DNA from: a virus
Length of the DNA stretch: 16,193 nt
UHGV virus genome: UHGV-0197964
Direction: 5' to 3' (one strand)
Below the pieces are notes generated by a model. It saw only the letters and a list, made by a program, of their open reading frames with translations. It had not been told where the DNA came from and did no database searches. Shown here piece by piece: positions 3,934 to 16,011 of this stretch. The stretch's first letter is position 1, and each line of letters starts with the position of its first letter. Both the position numbers and the translations under genes were made by a program.

Positions 3934-4457
3934 GTCGCCCTCCTGACGCCCTGCCCGATCGCCATCAATGCCGCTTTGGATACGGTAGTAAACATCCGTC
4001 GAGGACTGATGAACGGTCGCCAAATCAGCAGCATGGAGCCTTTGCTGTTTCCCTTCTTCTCCAGCCCCGTCGATGGTTCGATAAAATTAATCCGTCCATC
4101 AGTGATGATGCGAACTTCGTCAACGCTCTCCAGAGCCTTGCTGAACCATCCGACTGACATATCCTCTGGCACAAGCATCACTACCGTCTGTCGCTGTTGT
4201 ATGCACTGCTCAGCAGCTTTTTCCACCCACGGCCTGATATTGCTGTACGGTGGGTTATTCCAGATTGCACCGTGGCTTACCCACTCAGAATTGAGCGCGT
4301 CGTCGGCCTCAGTTAGCCAGTGAGCGCACAGAGCATTTTTGTCGCTCGCTGCCGAATCCAGCCAGAATCCAAACTCAATATCCAGTGCATCAAAAAGCCA
4401 AAGCGGCGTTTGCCAGCAGTCCTTGTCGTGTGCCGGCGTATTTGATTTGATAGTCAC
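3930..4457 (-). CDS. phage Dam-type DNA N6-adenine methyltransferase (orphan, no adjacent nuclease)
   Basis: Contains NPPY motif ([10 protein letters not shown]) and CWQTP...LF N-terminal motif typical of phage Dam family; GTG start at 4457 with AGGAG upstream overlaps ninB stop (GTGA); ORF-track start 4493 is a TTG. Confidence 0.8.
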
Positions 4458-4879
4458 TCTACTTGCCTCTCCTTTAGATCCAGGTACTCGCAATTATCAG
4501 GAATGGTTAGTCGTAATCCCTTCTGATGCGCCCACTGGTCAATATCGGTCAGATATTTGTGCATATCTCCAATATCAAGCTGACGTGTTGATTTAACGCA
4601 TCGTGTAATATTAAAAATCGTCACCCTTTTAGCCGGACAAAACATATCTTTCAGCCACTCATGAACCTCTTCAGGCGTGAAGTTTTCAGCAGAAGCAGCA
4701 GATAACTGTGCGGCTATTTCTGCATTCCACACCCACATCAGATTGTTTTGTGACAATGTACGCTTCTCACGGTACTCAGATATTTTGATTCGCCAGCGTT
4801 TGCCGGTAGAGAGGATTTGTTTCAGAACTAACCAGAATTGTGATTTATTGGTTTCGTGCAGAATGAAATCATTCATCAT
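4454..4879 (-). CDS. ninB: NinB/Orf-family recombination mediator (family-level call)
   Basis: 141 aa; position immediately upstream of the nin genes and a conserved segment (RTLSQNNLMWVWNAEIA vs lambda RSLDQNRKLWACLGDVS) support NinB. Confidence 0.55.
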   Translation of the reverse strand: MMNDFILHETNKSQFWLVLKQILSTGKRWRIKISEYREKRTLSQNNLMWVWNAEIAAQLSAASAENFTPEEVHEWLKDMFCPAKRVTIFNITRCVKSTRQLDIGDMHKYLTDIDQWAHQKGLRLTIPDNCEYLDLKERQVE

Positions 4880-11736: not shown

Positions 11737-12705
11737 ATGAGTGAAGTAACAGATTTAGTTGTTATTGAAAAAGCAAATGCAATGACTGTATTTCAGTCTT
11801 CCGACCAGATTGAAGAAATCCTTCAAAAGGTTGAACGTGAAGTTATGTCCTTTGTGCCTGATATCACAACGGCAAAGGGCAGAAAGGAGATCGCTTCTCT
11901 GGCGTATAAAGTTGCGCAGACGAAAACATATCTCGATGGTCTTGGCAAAGACCTTGTTGCTGAACTGAAGGAAATTCCAAAGCTAATTGATGCCAACCGC
12001 AAGACAGTGCGTGATCGCCTTGATGAGCTGAAAGCCAAGGCACGCCAGCCTCTTACTGATTATGAGGAAGAACAGGCGCGGATTAAAGCCGAAGAAGAAG
12101 CTAAGGCAGCAGCTGAAGCTCTCGCAAAGCAAATTGAGTCTGACCATGAAATAGCGATTTTGATGGATCGCGAATTTGACCGCCAAAGAGAAGAGGCAAG
12201 ACTCAAAGCGGAGCAGGAAAAGCGAGAGCATGAAGAACGATTAAAAAGAGAAGCTGAAGAGAAAGCCAGAGCAGAAGCCGAAGCAAAGGCAAAAGCCGAA
12301 ATTGAAGCAGCAGCAAGGCGAGAAGCAGAAGCTAAGGCCGCAGCAGAACGTGCAGAGCGTGAACGCATTGAAGCCGAGCAACGAGCACAGCGCGAAGCAA
12401 AAGAGGCAGCAGAACGAGCTGAAAGAGAAAAGCAGGCAGCAATTGAAGCAGAACGCAGAAAAGCACAGGAGGAGGCTGAACAAATCCGTCGCGATGCTGA
12501 AGCAAAAGAGCAAGCCAGAATAGCAGAAGAAAAAAGAATCAAGGACGAAGAAGAGCGTAGAGCAAAGGATAAAGATCACCGGAAAGAAGTAAATAACAAA
12601 ATACTTGCTGACCTTATCAAGGTTGGCGCATCAGAAGATGTTGCTAAAAATATCATAACAGCCATCGTAAAAGGCGAAGTATTCGCAACAAAAATAACCT
12701 ACTAA
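11737..12705 (+). CDS. hypothetical protein (322 aa) with a ~150-aa Glu/Ala/Lys/Arg-rich predicted coiled coil
   Basis: AAGGAGG 11 nt upstream; central EAEAKAKAE / AERAERE low-complexity repeats between globular-looking N- and C-terminal segments. Confidence 0.7.
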   Translation: MSEVTDLVVIEKANAMTVFQSSDQIEEILQKVEREVMSFVPDITTAKGRKEIASLAYKVAQTKTYLDGLGKDLVAELKEIPKLIDANRKTVRDRLDELKAKARQPLTDYEEEQARIKAEEEAKAAAEALAKQIESDHEIAILMDREFDRQREEARLKAEQEKREHEERLKREAEEKARAEAEAKAKAEIEAAARREAEAKAAAERAERERIEAEQRAQREAKEAAERAEREKQAAIEAERRKAQEEAEQIRRDAEAKEQARIAEEKRIKDEEERRAKDKDHRKEVNNKILADLIKVGASEDVAKNIITAIVKGEVFATKITY

Positions 12706-12729: not shown

Positions 12730-12861
12730 ATGATTTACGCAATCGCGGGAGGCGCTCGCATGGGTGCCTTCCAACTAAATGAATCTTTACTTGAACGAAT
12801 CACCCGTAAATTACGTGACGGATGGAAAAGAGTTGAGGTCTTATTATGCGCAATGAAATAG
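12730..12861 (+). CDS. cIII: CIII-like protein
   Basis: 43 aa found by manual translation; MIYAIAGG...ESLLERITRKLRDGWKR matches the recalled lambda CIII core; AAGGA 8 nt upstream. Confidence 0.75.
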   Translation: MIYAIAGGARMGAFQLNESLLERITRKLRDGWKRVEVLLCAMK

Positions 12862-12998
12862 CCATCAATCACCAGATGCTTCGTGCTGCACAGAACAAAG
12901 CAGTAATAGCCAGATTTATTGGTGATTCAAAAATGTGGCTTGAAGCAAATAAAGCGATGAAATCAGCTATCAACCTTCCGTGGTATCGCAGGAAATGA
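12846..12998 (+). CDS. kil: Kil-like small protein
   Basis: 50 aa by manual translation; IARFIGDSKMWLEA resembles recalled lambda Kil (IATFIGDEKMFREA); overlaps cIII end. Confidence 0.55.
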   Translation: MRNEIAINHQMLRAAQNKAVIARFIGDSKMWLEANKAMKSAINLPWYRRK

Positions 12999-13073
12999 GT
13001 TTTACAGATAACTGGTCAGACGAAGAATTCATTCGTCAGATGAAAGAATTAATCGGTAACGAAGGAGATATTC

Positions 13074-13247
13074 ATGTCACTTGCAACCACAGTGAAGGAG
13101 AGCAAGTTACAGAGACGCATGTACACGCAGAAAGCTCTCTGGTATCGCCATAATGGTGACCGCGAAGGAATGCGGGTATGCCTTAATTTGTCCCGAGTCG
13201 AAGTATTAAATCAGCGTTATTTCCTTGGGCCGTGTCCATTCTGAGGT
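13074..13247 (+). CDS. small basic hypothetical protein (57 aa), positionally equivalent to P22 arf
   Basis: ATG with AAGGAG 8 nt upstream; ends 6 nt before the annealing-protein gene; competes with overlapping 12995-13153 ORF. Confidence 0.4.
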
Positions 13248-13252
13248 GAATT

Positions 13253-13960
13253 ATGGATTTGAACAAATTCGATGAGCCATTCAGCCCTGAAGATATCGAA
13301 TGGCGAATACAGCAAAGCGGTAAAACACGCGATGGCAAGGTGTGGGCTATGGTGCTGGCTTATGTCACGAACCGGGCAATCATGAAACGCCTGGACGATG
13401 TTTGCGGCAAAGCAGGATGGCGCAATGAATACCGCGATATTCCCAACAACGGCGGAGTTGAATGCGGCATATCAATCAAGATTGATTCCGAATGGGTAAC
13501 CAAATGGGATGCTGCTGAAAACACGCAGGTAGAAGCCGTCAAAGGTGGTCGTTCCGGTGCAATGAAGCGTGCTGCCGTTCAGTGGGGAATCGGTCGGTAT
13601 CTGTATAACCTTGAGGAAGGTTTCGCACAAACATCTCTCGATAAAAAGCAGGGGTGGCACAGGGCAAAACTGAAGGATGGAACAGGATTTTACTGGTCCC
13701 CTCCATCGCTGCCGGGATGGGCAATCCCAGCATCAGATAACAAACCATCACCAGAAAATACCAACCAGAAATCTCCATCGGTTGACTGCGAACAAATCCT
13801 GAAAGACTTCAGCGATTATGCGTCAACAGAAACTGACAAGAAAAAACTCATCGAGCGTTATCAGCGTGACTGGCAATTAATGGCTGGCAACGAGGAGGCG
13901 CAGGCTAAATGCGTTCAGGTAATGAACATCAGAGTTAACGAACTAAAACAGGCGGCATAG
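13253..13960 (+). CDS. single-strand annealing protein: Rad52-like N-terminal domain with P22 Erf-like C-terminal domain
   Basis: AMKRAAVQWGIGRYLYN resembles the Rad52-family annealing motif; C-terminal ~55 aa closely match the recalled P22 Erf C-terminus (ETDKKKLIERYQ.DWQL...KCVQVMNIR.NELKQ). Confidence 0.7.
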   Translation: MDLNKFDEPFSPEDIEWRIQQSGKTRDGKVWAMVLAYVTNRAIMKRLDDVCGKAGWRNEYRDIPNNGGVECGISIKIDSEWVTKWDAAENTQVEAVKGGRSGAMKRAAVQWGIGRYLYNLEEGFAQTSLDKKQGWHRAKLKDGTGFYWSPPSLPGWAIPASDNKPSPENTNQKSPSVDCEQILKDFSDYASTETDKKKLIERYQRDWQLMAGNEEAQAKCVQVMNIRVNELKQAA

Positions 13961-14467
13961 ATGGCAAGCAGAGGCGTAAATAAGGTGATTATCCTTGGTC
14001 GGGTAGGACAAGACCCGGAAGTTCGATACTCACCATCAGGAACAGCGTTCGCTAACCTGACAATAGCCACGTCAGAACAATGGCGAGATAAAAATACTGG
14101 CGAGCAAAAGGAATTGACTGAATGGCATCGTGTTGCTGTATCCGGGAAACTGGCTGAGGTCGTGGGGCAGTATGTGAAAAAAGGTGATCAGATTTATTTC
14201 GAGGGAATGCTGAGAACCAGAAAGTGGAAAGACCAGTCAGGGCAAGACCGTTACACAACCGAGGTTCATGTCGGAATTAATGGCGTGATGCAAATGCTTG
14301 GCAGCATTGGCGACAGCAAACAACAAGCAGCCAGCAGGCAATCACAGAAGCCACAGCAGCAATCATCACCAGCACAACACAACGAACCTCCGATGGATTT
14401 TGACGACGATATACCCTTTGCACCAGTAACTCTCCCCTTCCCTCGTCACGCTATTCACGCAATTTAA
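13961..14467 (+). CDS. ssb: single-stranded DNA-binding protein
   Basis: OB-fold N-terminal region ([23 protein letters not shown]), Gln-rich linker and acidic C-terminal tail DFDDDIPF. Confidence 0.9.
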
Positions 14468-14480
14468 TCAGGAGAAAATC

Positions 14481-14777
14481 ATGCCAGCGCCTCAGTATGG
14501 TGCGGATGACCCGCGCCGCTGTTCCGGCAATTCCGTATCGGAGGTGCTGGATAAATTCAGGAAAAACTACGACCGGATAATGTCGCTACCGCAGGAAACG
14601 AAAGAGGAAAAGGAATTTCGCCATTGTATATGGCTTGCAGAGAAAGAAGAACGCGAGCGAATTTACCAGACATCAATCCGACCATTCCGCAAAGCCACAT
14701 ATACCAACTTCCCTGAATATATCGACCCGCGCCTGCGTAATTACCGCTCACGCTATGGCGCTATCAGTAATGACTGA
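14481..14777 (+). CDS. hypothetical protein (98 aa)
   Basis: ATG 13 nt after ssb stop; no motif recognised. Confidence 0.5.
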
Positions 14778-14787
14778 GGAATTTACC

Positions 14788-14955
14788 ATGAGAGGACTTG
14801 CATACAATCCCGGCATTCTTCCGGCAGAAATGATTATTCGCCAACGCGTAAAGCCAATGCCATCGAGAGAGGAATTGCTTAAGAGAAAGAGTTTCGGTTC
14901 TGTTAACGACAACAGATATCTGAATGCGACGTGGCGCAAAGGAGGCAACCAGTGA
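14788..14955 (+). CDS. small hypothetical protein (55 aa)
   Basis: Internal ATG of the track ORF with GAGGA 7 nt upstream. Confidence 0.4.
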
Positions 14956-15206
14956 GTAATTCAGCACGACTACAGCTTGGTTTTTCACCGCTATCAAAAA
15001 CTATCATGCTGGCAAAAATGCGCGATGTTGAAGGTGGACGTATGCGCGTTGGCAATGATCCAGGTCGTGATGTTACCAATGAGGCTGCTCAATTGGTGTG
15101 GCGACTGGTCATGGCTGAAGGTGGTGAGATCGCGTGGGAGCTGGATGATGGTTCTCGCATGGTGTTGAAGGCAGAAAAGCAGGAGGCAACCAGTGAGCAA
15201 GATTGA
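14952..15206 (+). CDS. hypothetical protein (84 aa, GTG start)
   Basis: GTG preceded by AAGGAGG at 8-nt spacing; overlaps the upstream stop (GTGA); ORF-track start 14931 is an alternative GTG. Confidence 0.45.
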
Positions 15207-16011
15207 CTATCAGGCACTGCGTGCCAAGGCAGAAAAAGCAACGTGTGGTGTATGGTCGCTCGAATATGGAGAGAGCCGATTTGATTGTGATGATGCGCTA
15301 ATTCATCGTGACGTTGTTGGATATCTTCCCATTTGCAGAATTGAAGGAGCGCATCCTGAAAGCGGTTTCGATGAAGATTTCCAAATGGAACAGCAGGCCA
15401 ATGCTGAATTCATCGCCGCAGCTAATCCGGCTACCGTCTTGGCATTACTGGATGAACGGGAAAGAAACCAGCAATACATCAAACGCCGCGACCAGGAGAA
15501 CGAGGATATTGCGCTAACGGTAGGGAAGCTGCGCGTTGAGCTGGAAGGCAAAGACAGCAAAATAGCCAATCTTACCGCCGAACGCGATGCTCTTCGTGAA
15601 GGTGAGATGGGCGACGCTAGGCATAGCAACACACGGGCCGCAGCTGATATCTACTTCCAACTGGTCGAGGAGTGCGAAATTCCTGCTGGCGGTTCTCTGG
15701 TCGAGTACGTTGACGATATGCGAGAGAAGCTGGAAGCCTCAGAGAAGCGCATTGCAGAACTGAAAAGCAACGAAGTCCGTGAAGTCGGAAATCAGTTTCT
15801 TGTTGTTCGCCATCCTGGGAAAACTCCTGTCATCAAGCACTGCACTGGTGACCTGGAAGAGTTTCTGCGGAAGTTAATCGAACAAGACCCGTTAGTAACT
15901 ATCGACATCATTACGCATCGCTATTACGGGATTGGCGGTCAATGGGTTCAGGATGCAGTTGAGTATCTGCATATGATGTCTGACGCTGGCATTCGCATCA
16001 AAGGAGAGTGA
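15193..16011 (+). CDS. Ea22-like early-left accessory protein (tentative family)
   Basis: 272 aa, GTG start in the same SD-GTG context as the previous gene; N-terminal ...YQALRAKAEKATCG... and ANAEFIAAANPATVLALLDE recalled from Ea22-like prophage proteins. Confidence 0.5.
   Translation: MSKIDYQALRAKAEKATCGVWSLEYGESRFDCDDALIHRDVVGYLPICRIEGAHPESGFDEDFQMEQQANAEFIAAANPATVLALLDERERNQQYIKRRDQENEDIALTVGKLRVELEGKDSKIANLTAERDALREGEMGDARHSNTRAAADIYFQLVEECEIPAGGSLVEYVDDMREKLEASEKRIAELKSNEVREVGNQFLVVRHPGKTPVIKHCTGDLEEFLRKLIEQDPLVTIDIITHRYYGIGGQWVQDAVEYLHMMSDAGIRIKGE

Follow-up and report, generated by a model that had tools for sequence, protein, structure and literature searches.

A Rad52/Sak-type annealing protein with an Erf-type C-terminal domain in an HK75-type recombination module of a lambdoid prophage

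What does a small Erf-type domain do at the end of an annealing protein whose core belongs to another family, and where does a module without an exonuclease gene obtain its nuclease? These questions are raised by a 16,193-nucleotide stretch of the virus genome UHGV-0197964 (the window), in which the genes and domains located below by coordinates lie on the plus strand. Two adjacent reading frames, 13253..13960 (235 aa) and 13961..14467 (168 aa), are exactly where an earlier sequence-only reading had placed them. That reading proposed a single-strand annealing protein (SSAP) with a Rad52-like motif, an Erf-type C-terminus, and a domain boundary near residue 170, followed by a phage SSB, and on these points it agrees with the searches reported here far beyond chance.

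The annealing core of the SSAP has the Rad52_Rad22 fold and occupies aa 1 to 158 (13253..13726), as delimited by Pfam, identity to Sak, and an AF2 model. The Rad52_Rad22 profile (PF04098) scored 91.9 bits over aa 4 to 136 (cutoff, 20.3 bits; E = 5e-26), spanning profile positions 7 to 153 of 153. The motif WGIGRYLYN, earlier picked out as characteristic of the Rad52 family, lies inside this match at aa 111 to 119, and its residues W111 to Y118 (WGIGRYLY) are unchanged throughout 32 homologs. The ERF profile (PF04404) gave no match at E ≤ 1 to either the whole SSAP or aa 1 to 170. Across the best 120 of 5567 homologs, PF04098 was always present, and PGAP names the SSAP in E. coli genomes “Rad52/Rad22 family DNA repair protein.” Human RAD52 and yeast Mgm101 made up the top 15 PDB matches to the AF2 model of the full-length protein (pLDDT 82.6), with probabilities of 0.98 to 1.0, E values of 1.6e-4 to 3e-3, and TM scores that were modest (0.25 to 0.49) partly because the query was the full-length protein. 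The N-terminal 170 aa were 58.7% identical, over aa 6 to 159, to Sak of the lactococcal phages ul36/Q33, a protein regarded in published work as a true orthologue of Rad52. Given this identity to the characterized ul36 Sak, the core would be expected to form a ring oligomer that binds and anneals single-stranded DNA.

The core is joined by a flexible, hypervariable linker (aa ~159 to 178; 13727..13786) to the Erf-type C-terminal domain (aa 179 to 235; 13787..13957), a three-helix bundle of 57 residues. Residues 162 to 175 of the linker are disordered in the model (pLDDT < 50), and its length and sequence differ among the 32 homologs. Modeled alone, the C-terminal domain contains three helices with a pLDDT of 91.2, and its conserved residues are L183, F186, A190, Y203, W207, C220, R227, E230, and L231. 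P22 Erf residues 134 to 205 aligned solely to SSAP aa 157 to 235 (BLASTP, 63% identity, E = 2e-30), and the last 65 aa were 71% identical to P22 erf by tblastn (E = 1e-23), bearing out the earlier impression of an Erf-like C-terminus. By blastn, the P22 DNA match within the SSAP gene was confined to positions 13790 to 13959 (78% identity), and the core stretch had no DNA homology to P22 erf. This homology begins at codon 180 and helix 1 begins at aa 179, which puts the boundary anticipated near residue 170 within about 10 residues of its actual position. The left edge of P22-homologous DNA also falls at codon 180 in ST64T and epsilon34, and a comparison of epsilon34 with P22 revealed an isolated 171-bp DNA island over the C-terminal domain. 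In recombination terms, the C-terminal domain is a self-contained cassette of ~171 bp whose left edge coincides with the residue that opens helix 1.

The same C-terminal domain was found on both kinds of core. Pfam ERF cores bear it in P22, HK97, EhrS_49, GZ7, and a Morganella phage (ERF E values of 1.6e-18 to 4.6e-46), and Rad52_Rad22 cores bear it in the present SSAP, Sf6, ST64T, and epsilon34. For example, P22 Erf and a Rad52-type protein from Salmonella have C-terminal domains that are 96% identical, and the corresponding figure for EhrS_49 Erf and a Rad52-type protein from Erwinia is 75%. C-terminal-domain sequences cluster according to host genus and not according to core. Because one tail occurs on both cores and P22 DNA homology is confined to it, the earlier proposal of domain shuffling between SSAP families holds, and direct alignments confirm the SSAP as a genuine two-family mosaic. 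A recent fusion private to this genome was rejected, as the full-length architecture is kept down to 57% identity across Enterobacterales. Database searches with the 65-aa C-terminal domain returned little: a word-indexed protein search gave only 13 short fragments, and HMMER against 1.84 billion representatives, a library for which the query is too short, gave 15 matches that were mostly fragments and indicates no more than a narrow family. No Pfam model of the domain exists; its related loci were scanned with three single sequences.

A profile assigning the whole protein to one family would have spoken against this mosaic, and one PHROG family, phrog_1097 (“Erf-like”), does match it end to end (E = 6e-130). 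This family is a cluster of the same chimeric architecture and provides no evidence against a domain boundary; the Pfam match covers aa 4 to 136 only. The label “Erf-like,” used by both phrog_1097 and GenBank, derives from the C-terminal domain, which the Pfam ERF match (aa 5 to 146 of P22 Erf) largely leaves out, and it is misleading for a protein whose annealing core is of the Rad52/Sak type.

The answer to the nuclease question lies one gene downstream of ssb. Although the annealing protein and SSB named in the sequence-only reading are both present, its account of the module was incomplete, as it overlooked the anti-RecBCD protein Abc2, encoded at 14481..14777 and identified by BLAST, Pfam, and PHROG (phrog_656). 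It is 92% identical to P22 Abc2 (E = 4e-67), and PF11043 covers aa 1 to 98 (profile positions 1 to 97 of 97, 203.7 bits, E = 3.8e-61). Abc2 converts host RecBCD into a 5′-3′ resection nuclease (PMC5928155; its role as a RecBCD hijacker is also described in PMC12315714), which accounts for the absence of an exonuclease gene from the module: the nuclease is supplied by the host. By extension from what has been published for P22, HK620, and lambda, Abc2 would bind RecC and make host RecBCD the resecting nuclease, the exposed 3′ strand would be coated by SSB, and complementary strands would be annealed by the ring-forming core.

This gene set forms the Rec module of a lambdoid prophage resembling P22 and HK97 and is of the HK75 type, with SSAP, SSB, and Abc2 but no nuclease gene. 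A 2025 survey (PMC12315714) describes the HK75 Rec class as a PL-operon cluster that has an anti-RecBCD protein, an SSB, and an SAP and lacks a nuclease, and every one of these features is found here, in contiguous SSAP, SSB, and Abc2 genes with a 13-bp ssb-abc2 gap that leaves no room for a nuclease gene. Positions 12781 to 14936 are 97% identical to HK75 DNA and have the same gene order, and 363 of 5426 complete E. coli genomes carry the three-gene block with at least 80% of the query covered. Directly upstream of the SSAP gene, in the position of arf in P22, is a 56-aa ORF like HK97 gp42 and Sf6 gp29 (13074..13244; phrog_1723, E = 9e-36) that had no Pfam match and was upstream in 154 of 167 census loci; HK97 is 98.5% identical to the DNA at 12844 to 13245. 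It is overlapped by a 57-aa ORF like HK97 gp42.1 and Sf6 gp30 (12980..13153; phrog_2123, E = 9e-42), which is annotated in both of those phages. The nin region of the same stretch encodes NinB/Orf, RusA, and an HNH endonuclease.

The SSB assignment also stood. In the 168-aa protein (13961..14467; phrog_44), PF00436 matched aa 6 to 104 (125 bits, cutoff 26, E = 1.5e-36), and this OB fold is followed by a Gln-rich linker and an acidic DFDDDIPF motif at aa 146 to 153. The SSBs of HK75, mEp235, and mEpX2 are 99.4% identical to it. Partner binding by E. coli SSB needs the terminal Phe, yet this SSB has no free ...DDDIPF carboxy-terminus: 15 further residues (14420..14464) follow the Phe that is normally terminal. 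Comparison with Sf6 and the census revealed their origin. Sf6 SSB ends in ...DIPF, and the C-terminal end of Sf6 gp26, a phrog_2340 endonuclease, matches the extension; the present genome and Sf6 have identical DNA running from CCAGTAACT up to and including the abc2 ribosome binding site. When the HNH gene was present, SSBs ended in IPF (20 of 20), and when it was absent, they carried the extension (58 of 59). The extension represents the 3′ end of an HNH-type endonuclease gene that is missing here, fused to ssb, and either arose by deletion of that gene or, in reverse, reflects the state before its insertion. A sequencing error or private mutation was rejected as its source, as the 168- to 171-aa form occurs in HK75, mEp235, mEpX2, epsilon34, g341c, and 58 IMG/VR loci. 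With its IPF tip capped, this SSB may be incapable of the canonical contacts that depend on the tip.

The sequence-only reading suggested that the C-terminal module possibly mediates partner interactions, which is plausible. With moderate confidence, and by analogy, the bundle can be viewed as an adaptor that would tether the annealing ring to a partner, most likely the acidic ...DDDIPF tail of an SSB. The analogy is to lambda Redβ, whose C-terminal domain folds into three bundled helices and binds both lambda Exo and the C-tail of SSB, a contact for which Phe177 is needed. SSAP compatibility is set by SSB tails, stimulation of HK620 Sak4 needs the SSB tail (PMC5928155), and genes that come next after Erf-tail SSAPs often encode SSBs with an acidic IPF or VPF tip. 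The Erf-type domain is accompanied by abc1 and abc2, without SSB, in P22 and ST64T, and by an SSB, without an annotated Abc2, in the Morganella phage. EhrS_49 has no recognizable SSB or Abc2, and seven EhrS_49-type loci in the census (L090 to L096) lack all five of the markers SSB, HK97 gp40, Abc1, HNH, and Abc2. Klebsiella phage GZ7 likewise has no SSB or Abc2 by annotation; in both phages the next gene lacks a Pfam match, and in GZ7 its translation looks unrelated. Because the domain persists in phages encoding neither SSB nor Abc2, its partner would be mainly the host SSB. The grouping of C-terminal domains by host genus could reflect shared recombination pools instead of evolution alongside a host partner; the SSB tips of enterobacteria (E. 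coli, Salmonella, and Citrobacter) hardly vary and so would not drive divergence of the domain.

The strongest alternative, though an unlikely one, is that the bundle docks the SSAP on Abc2-modified RecBCD, or on Abc2 itself, so that annealing protein would be loaded directly onto the strand under resection. In comparison with P22, DNA conservation within the module is limited to two islands, the C-terminal-domain stretch and abc2, and Abc2 follows in 158 of 160 loci with a tail of the window type or HK97 type; in these E. coli and Salmonella phage loci, an Abc2/RecBCD partner is possible. The Redβ C-terminal domain offers a precedent in binding its own nuclease, lambda Exo, but the Erf-type bundle resembles it neither detectably in sequence nor specifically in structure. 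Moreover, the seven EhrS_49-type loci have the domain but no Abc2, as do, by annotation, GZ7 and the Morganella phage.

Somewhat less probable again is action in cis, for example on ring assembly or disassembly or on DNA release, with no external partner. The three-helix C-terminal region of Gp77, an Erf-like protein of SECphi27, is peripheral and flexibly placed above the ring, and RAZR recognition of the Gp77 ring does not need it; in other SSAPs of the Rad52 type, Mgm101 among them, the C-terminal tail influences DNA binding and ring stability (PMC3655812). A domain working in cis should co-evolve with its core, yet domains 75 to 96% identical have been swapped between cores that BLASTP does not align, and this swapping, together with the disordered, hypervariable tether, is typical of an independent adaptor.

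A partner encoded by the next downstream gene (SSB here, Abc1 in P22, and gp40 in HK97) is improbable: domain subtype does track the next gene in the census (SSB-1 after the window type, gp40 after the HK97 type), and HK620 Sak4 is stimulated by its cognate SSB (PMC5928155), but the ST64T domain, 84.6% identical over the last 65 aa, precedes Abc1 and not SSB, the epsilon34 domain, with 87% DNA identity to that of P22, precedes SSB where P22 has Abc1, Erwinia-type loci have no recognizable equivalent, and the SSB tip is capped in the present genome. Least credible, and offered as little more than speculation, is that the Erf-type bundle and the 14- to 15-residue extension peptide form a portable “socket and plug” pair that would tether the peptide carrier (the HNH nuclease in Sf6/ES18-type modules, SSB in HK75-type modules) to the annealing ring; the peptide is near-invariant in 82 copies, but all of them are within closely related DNA.

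The overall explanation, an HK75-type Rec module in which a two-domain SSAP would work with host RecBCD resection directed by Abc2 and use its C-terminal domain as an adaptor, is probable. The chimera, its neighbors, and the module type are already known from the literature and routine PGAP annotation, and as a discovery the chimeric SSAP matters little. In the literature examined, no statement was found of the helix-1 boundary, the ~171-bp cassette, its occurrence on both cores, or its clustering by host genus with or without phage SSB/Abc2, nor of the HNH-derived 15-residue SSB extension. The locus is a clean natural example of SSAP cores and C-terminal adaptor domains that are separable and exchanged at a precise boundary, which bears on portable recombineering proteins, where host-SSB compatibility limits cross-species transfer. 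The capped tail is a smaller oddity, a natural phage SSB whose partner-docking tip is blocked. If the bundle and the peptide did form a pair, fusion of the tail to ssb would represent functional rewiring rather than a deletion scar, and lambdoid phages would be building recombination machines out of interchangeable docking parts.

Among known systems, the closest are four that have the same chimera of Rad52-type core and Erf-type tail, namely, Sf6 gp28, which is 99% identical to the present SSAP, HK75 gp32 (HK75_32), epsilon34 gp36, and ST64T Orf-235, with differences in neighboring genes only: between ssb and abc2, Sf6 keeps the HNH endonuclease gene and epsilon34 has a DnaQ-like exonuclease (PF16473), both absent here, while ST64T has abc1 and lacks the ssb of the present module. 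The 2008 epsilon34 paper already described these Erf “domain swaps,” noting that the name “Erf” rests on the C-terminal 56 aa alone and that such swaps had been discussed earlier (PMC2629481). P22 Erf shares with the present protein the C-terminal domain, a position in the PL operon, abc2 further downstream, and, according to Poteete et al. (1983) as cited in later papers, a two-domain layout of ring-forming core and tethered C-terminal domain. Its core is Pfam ERF (aa 5 to 146, E = 5e-46) whereas the present one is Rad52_Rad22, the two cores have no BLASTP or DNA similarity, and P22 has arf and abc1 but no ssb. Lactococcus phage ul36 Sak has a core of the same Pfam family, its match stopping at aa 159, but comes from another host phylum and gene context, and lactococcal phages were absent among the C-terminal-domain matches listed.

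Lambda Redβ likewise combines an annealing core with a small three-helix C-terminal domain (PDB 6M9K), on which both the binding of its partners, lambda Exo and the SSB C-tail, and recombination in vivo depend. Fold and profile comparisons detected no sequence similarity or specific structural similarity between this domain and the Erf-type bundle, and the phage exonuclease that partners Redβ would be replaced here by Abc2-modified host RecBCD. HK620 has the same layout of annealing protein (Sak4), phage SSB, and Abc2 with no nuclease, but Sak4 is a RecA-core ATPase whereas the present SSAP has a Rad52 fold, and the HK620 SSB is of a distant DUF669 type with a free NDYPPF tip, in contrast to the capped tip of the SSB described here.

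The single-strand annealing protein (SSAP) encoded at positions 13253 to 13960 on the plus strand (235 amino acids [aa]) is a mosaic of two SSAP families, as the sequence-only reading had proposed. Pfam assigns residues 4 to 136 to Rad52_Rad22 (score 91.9 bits, cutoff 20.3; E = 5e-26), the ERF family has no match in the protein even at an E value of ≤1, and the last 65 aa match no Pfam family. In PHROGs, a single family ("Erf-like ssDNA annealing protein") spans the entire SSAP. In searches of 50,697 phage records with each part on its own, the last 65 aa matched P22 erf (71% identity; E = 1e-23) plus many "Erf" genes, while the first 170 aa matched Sak of the lactococcal phages ul36 and Q33 (58.7%) as well as other proteins of the Rad52 type, with P22 absent among the matches listed. 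BLASTP against authentic P22 Erf, in which residues 5 to 146 are Pfam ERF (E = 4.6e-46), aligned only SSAP residues 157 to 235 to Erf residues 134 to 205 (63% identity; E = 2e-30). The Rad52 motif, the Erf-type C terminus, and a domain boundary near residue 170 were therefore all correctly called, the coordinates of both open reading frames (ORFs) were exact, and the second (13961 to 14467, plus strand, 168 aa) encodes a canonical SSB (PF00436; E = 1.5e-36).

The Rad52/Erf-tail mosaic confirmed here was already known. Such swaps of Erf domains appear in the 2008 genome paper on epsilon34, according to which the name "Erf" is owed solely to the C-terminal 56 aa (PMC2629481). The SSAP is 99% identical to Sf6 gp28, and the three-gene block of SSAP, SSB, and Abc2 has 100% identical copies in several Escherichia coli chromosomes. 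At a query coverage of at least 80%, the block is present in 363 of 5426 complete E. coli genomes, where PGAP labels it "Rad52/Rad22 family DNA repair protein," "ssb," and "phage anti-RecBCD protein."

An alignment of 32 full-length SSAP homologs with identities as low as 58% divided the protein into a highly conserved core that terminates in the motif W148-x-x-P151-x-L153-P154-x-W156-A157-x-P159, a linker varying in sequence and length, and a conserved C-terminal block. The AlphaFold2 model built from this alignment (pLDDT 82.6) predicts a beta-rich core with helices, disorder at residues 162 to 175 (pLDDT <50), and three C-terminal helices (residues 179 to 192, 196 to 209, and 214 to 234). 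Human RAD52 and yeast Mgm101 were the top PDB matches to the full model (probability 1.0), confirming the Rad52-type core structurally. Modeled alone, the C-terminal domain (residues 179 to 235) was very confidently predicted as a three-helix bundle (pLDDT 91.2; pTM 0.77).

The same junction is visible in DNA. Homology of the module to P22 is confined to positions 13790 to 13959 (78%) and 14471 to 14929 (84.5%); nothing in P22 corresponds to the SSAP core or to ssb in this comparison. The left edge of the P22-homologous stretch falls at codon 180 in the window gene (erf codon 150), coincides with the first residue of helix 1, and is shared by ST64T and epsilon34. In epsilon34 the stretch is an isolated 171-bp island, whereas in ST64T it runs on through abc1 and abc2.

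The C-terminal domain sits repeatedly on both core types, with ERF cores carrying it in HK97, the Erwinia phage EhrS_49, the Klebsiella phage GZ7, and a Morganella phage. When copies from both were aligned together, those attached to ERF cores were interspersed with those on Rad52 cores. The P22 Erf domain is 96% identical to the copy in a Salmonella Rad52-type protein, and the EhrS_49 Erf domain is nearest to the copy on an Erwinia Rad52-type core (75%), ahead of all other ERF-attached copies; similarity thus follows host genus, not core. A partner encoded by the host could explain this grouping, but so could recombination within a common pool.

Domain types were linked to downstream genes in a census covering 167 IMG/VR loci. 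Window-type domains were on Rad52 cores followed by SSB and Abc2 (58 loci) or by SSB, HNH, and Abc2 (20 loci), and HK97-type domains were on ERF cores followed by gp40 and Abc2 (79 loci). EhrS_49-type domains (contigs L090 to L096, related to the Erwinia phage) had no recognizable SSB, HK97 gp40, Abc1, HNH, or Abc2 downstream; they form a single clade (70 to 100% identical) on ERF (n = 5) or Rad52 (n = 2) cores and represent a second, independent case of core swap. Downstream of Erf-tail SSAPs, the next gene often encodes an OB-fold SSB with an acidic IPF or VPF end. In the literature examined, we did not find the occurrence of the domain on both cores by host genus, the census linkage, or the IPF/VPF-tipped SSBs stated. 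In HK97-type modules, the OB-fold-like gene after erf ends in ...YDDSIPF in PhiR12_2_star (L008:3195-3578), an SSB-like tip that appears altered in HK97 gp40 (L003:3695-4084; ...YDDSNPILI).

Homology assigned no function to the C-terminal domain: hhalign against Redbeta gave a probability of 0.2%, a profile search of PDB sequences returned nothing significant, and the best Foldseek hit had an E value of 1.4. The best-supported reading is that the domain would be an adaptor to an external partner, to which we give even chances. The Redbeta C-terminal domain, also a three-helix bundle, binds lambda Exo as well as the nine C-terminal residues of SSB, with Phe177 required for the contact (PMC6393309); SSAP portability is set by SSB tails according to cited literature, and Sak4 stimulation in HK620 requires the SSB tail (PMC5928155). 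In the Erf-like SECphi27 Gp77, a three-helix C-terminal region is displayed flexibly above the ring (PMC13017515). Within the adaptor estimate, an SSB tail is our tentative candidate for the partner. Abc2/RecBCD is an unlikely one. P22 and ST64T carry the domain with no SSB and, together with the census, show that the domain does not require a phage SSB or Abc2 as its partner. A cis-acting role, listed within the same estimate, is somewhat more doubtful still, and a downstream phage protein seems improbable given the EhrS_49-type loci.

The window SSB has 15 extra residues (14420 to 14464) past the normally terminal ...DDDIPF, at which Sf6 SSB ends. In Sf6, an endonuclease gene, gp26 (phrog_2340; E = 3e-47), lies between ssb and abc2. 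Its 3' end recurs without a mismatch in the window DNA, starting at CCAGTAACT and extending over the stop codon to include the ribosome-binding site of abc2; this segment follows the SSB Phe codon in frame. To judge from this identity, the extension is the fused 3' end of the HNH-type endonuclease gene found at that place in Sf6/ES18-type modules. SSB ended in IPF in 20/20 census modules with the HNH gene and was extended in 58/59 without it, so the HK75-type module looks like an Sf6/ES18-type module after nuclease gene loss, with 15 codons left fused to ssb. The polarity could also be the reverse, with insertion of the HNH gene. The extension would cap the partner-docking tip, and because partners recognize the free terminal Phe of SSB (PMC6393309), the window SSB may be unable to form the canonical contacts that depend on this tip.

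The sequence-only reading described the module as an annealing protein plus SSB without an exonuclease gene. Both proteins are present, but Abc2, encoded directly after ssb at 14481 to 14777 (92% identical to P22 Abc2; PF11043, E = 3.8e-61), was overlooked and belongs to the recombination module. Abc2 turns RecBCD from a double-stranded DNA exonuclease into a 5'-3' exonuclease, readying ends for recombination (PMC5928155), and a 2025 survey states that it binds RecC and stops Chi activation (PMC12315714). The module thus comprises three genes with the nuclease supplied by the host; the lack of an exonuclease gene is literally true of the Rec module, but resection activity is not thereby missing. 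In P22 Abc1 (L001:4192-4476), whose molecular function that survey calls unknown, the C terminus matches sigma-70 region 4 (PF08281; E = 3.4e-6) at 27.0 bits, barely over the Pfam cutoff of 25.7, and may thus contain a helix-turn-helix for DNA binding.

The window is the early region of a P22/HK97-like lambdoid prophage. The minus strand encodes endolysin, holin, Q, RusA, HNH endonuclease, Ant, DNA methyltransferase, NinB/Orf, a DnaB-like helicase, and an O-like initiator; the leftward early operon, on the plus strand from ~10.1 kb, includes cIII and kil, a pair of small HK97 gp42.1/gp42-like ORFs, and, after these, the genes for SSAP, SSB, and Abc2. Further recombination accessory functions lie in the nin region: a NinB/Orf mediator (4454 to 4879), a RusA-like Holliday junction resolvase (2244 to 2579), and an HNH endonuclease (2576 to 2866; phrog_131), all on the minus strand. 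Lambda Orf is an SSB binder (PMC6393309). The overlapping gp42.1/gp42-like ORFs (12980 to 13153 and 13074 to 13244, plus strand; phrog_2123 and phrog_1723) have no Pfam match and carry the label "recombinase," the basis of which is not evident. A gp42-like ORF lies 5' of the SSAP in 154/167 census loci, among which both core types, ERF and Rad52, are represented. An Sf6 gp33-like protein of 322 aa (11737 to 12705; phrog_1376), with no Pfam match, has ~170 central residues that are nearly all E/A/K/R repeats of charged single-helix or coiled-coil character; "TolA" is one of the feature names under the related-phage matches, which were made to the window as a whole and not to this ORF in particular. 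The 272-aa ORF at 15193 to 16011 is matched by 17 different PHROG families over different subranges, suggesting that it is an Ea22-like accessory gene of the early-left region with a highly mosaic makeup.

Among known systems, P22 has arf in the position of the gp42.1/gp42-like ORFs, and HK97 has erf and gp40 in place of the whole SSAP-plus-ssb block (13246 to 14477), with flanks 95 to 98% identical. The 2025 survey of 325 lambdoid phages remarks, without analysis there, that promiscuous module combinations probably result from shuffled partner-interaction domains, and defines an HK75-type Rec module (27 phages) as having anti-RecBCD, SSB, and SAP functions and lacking nuclease (PMC12315714). 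HK75 itself has the module of the window, 97% identical throughout and in the same gene order.
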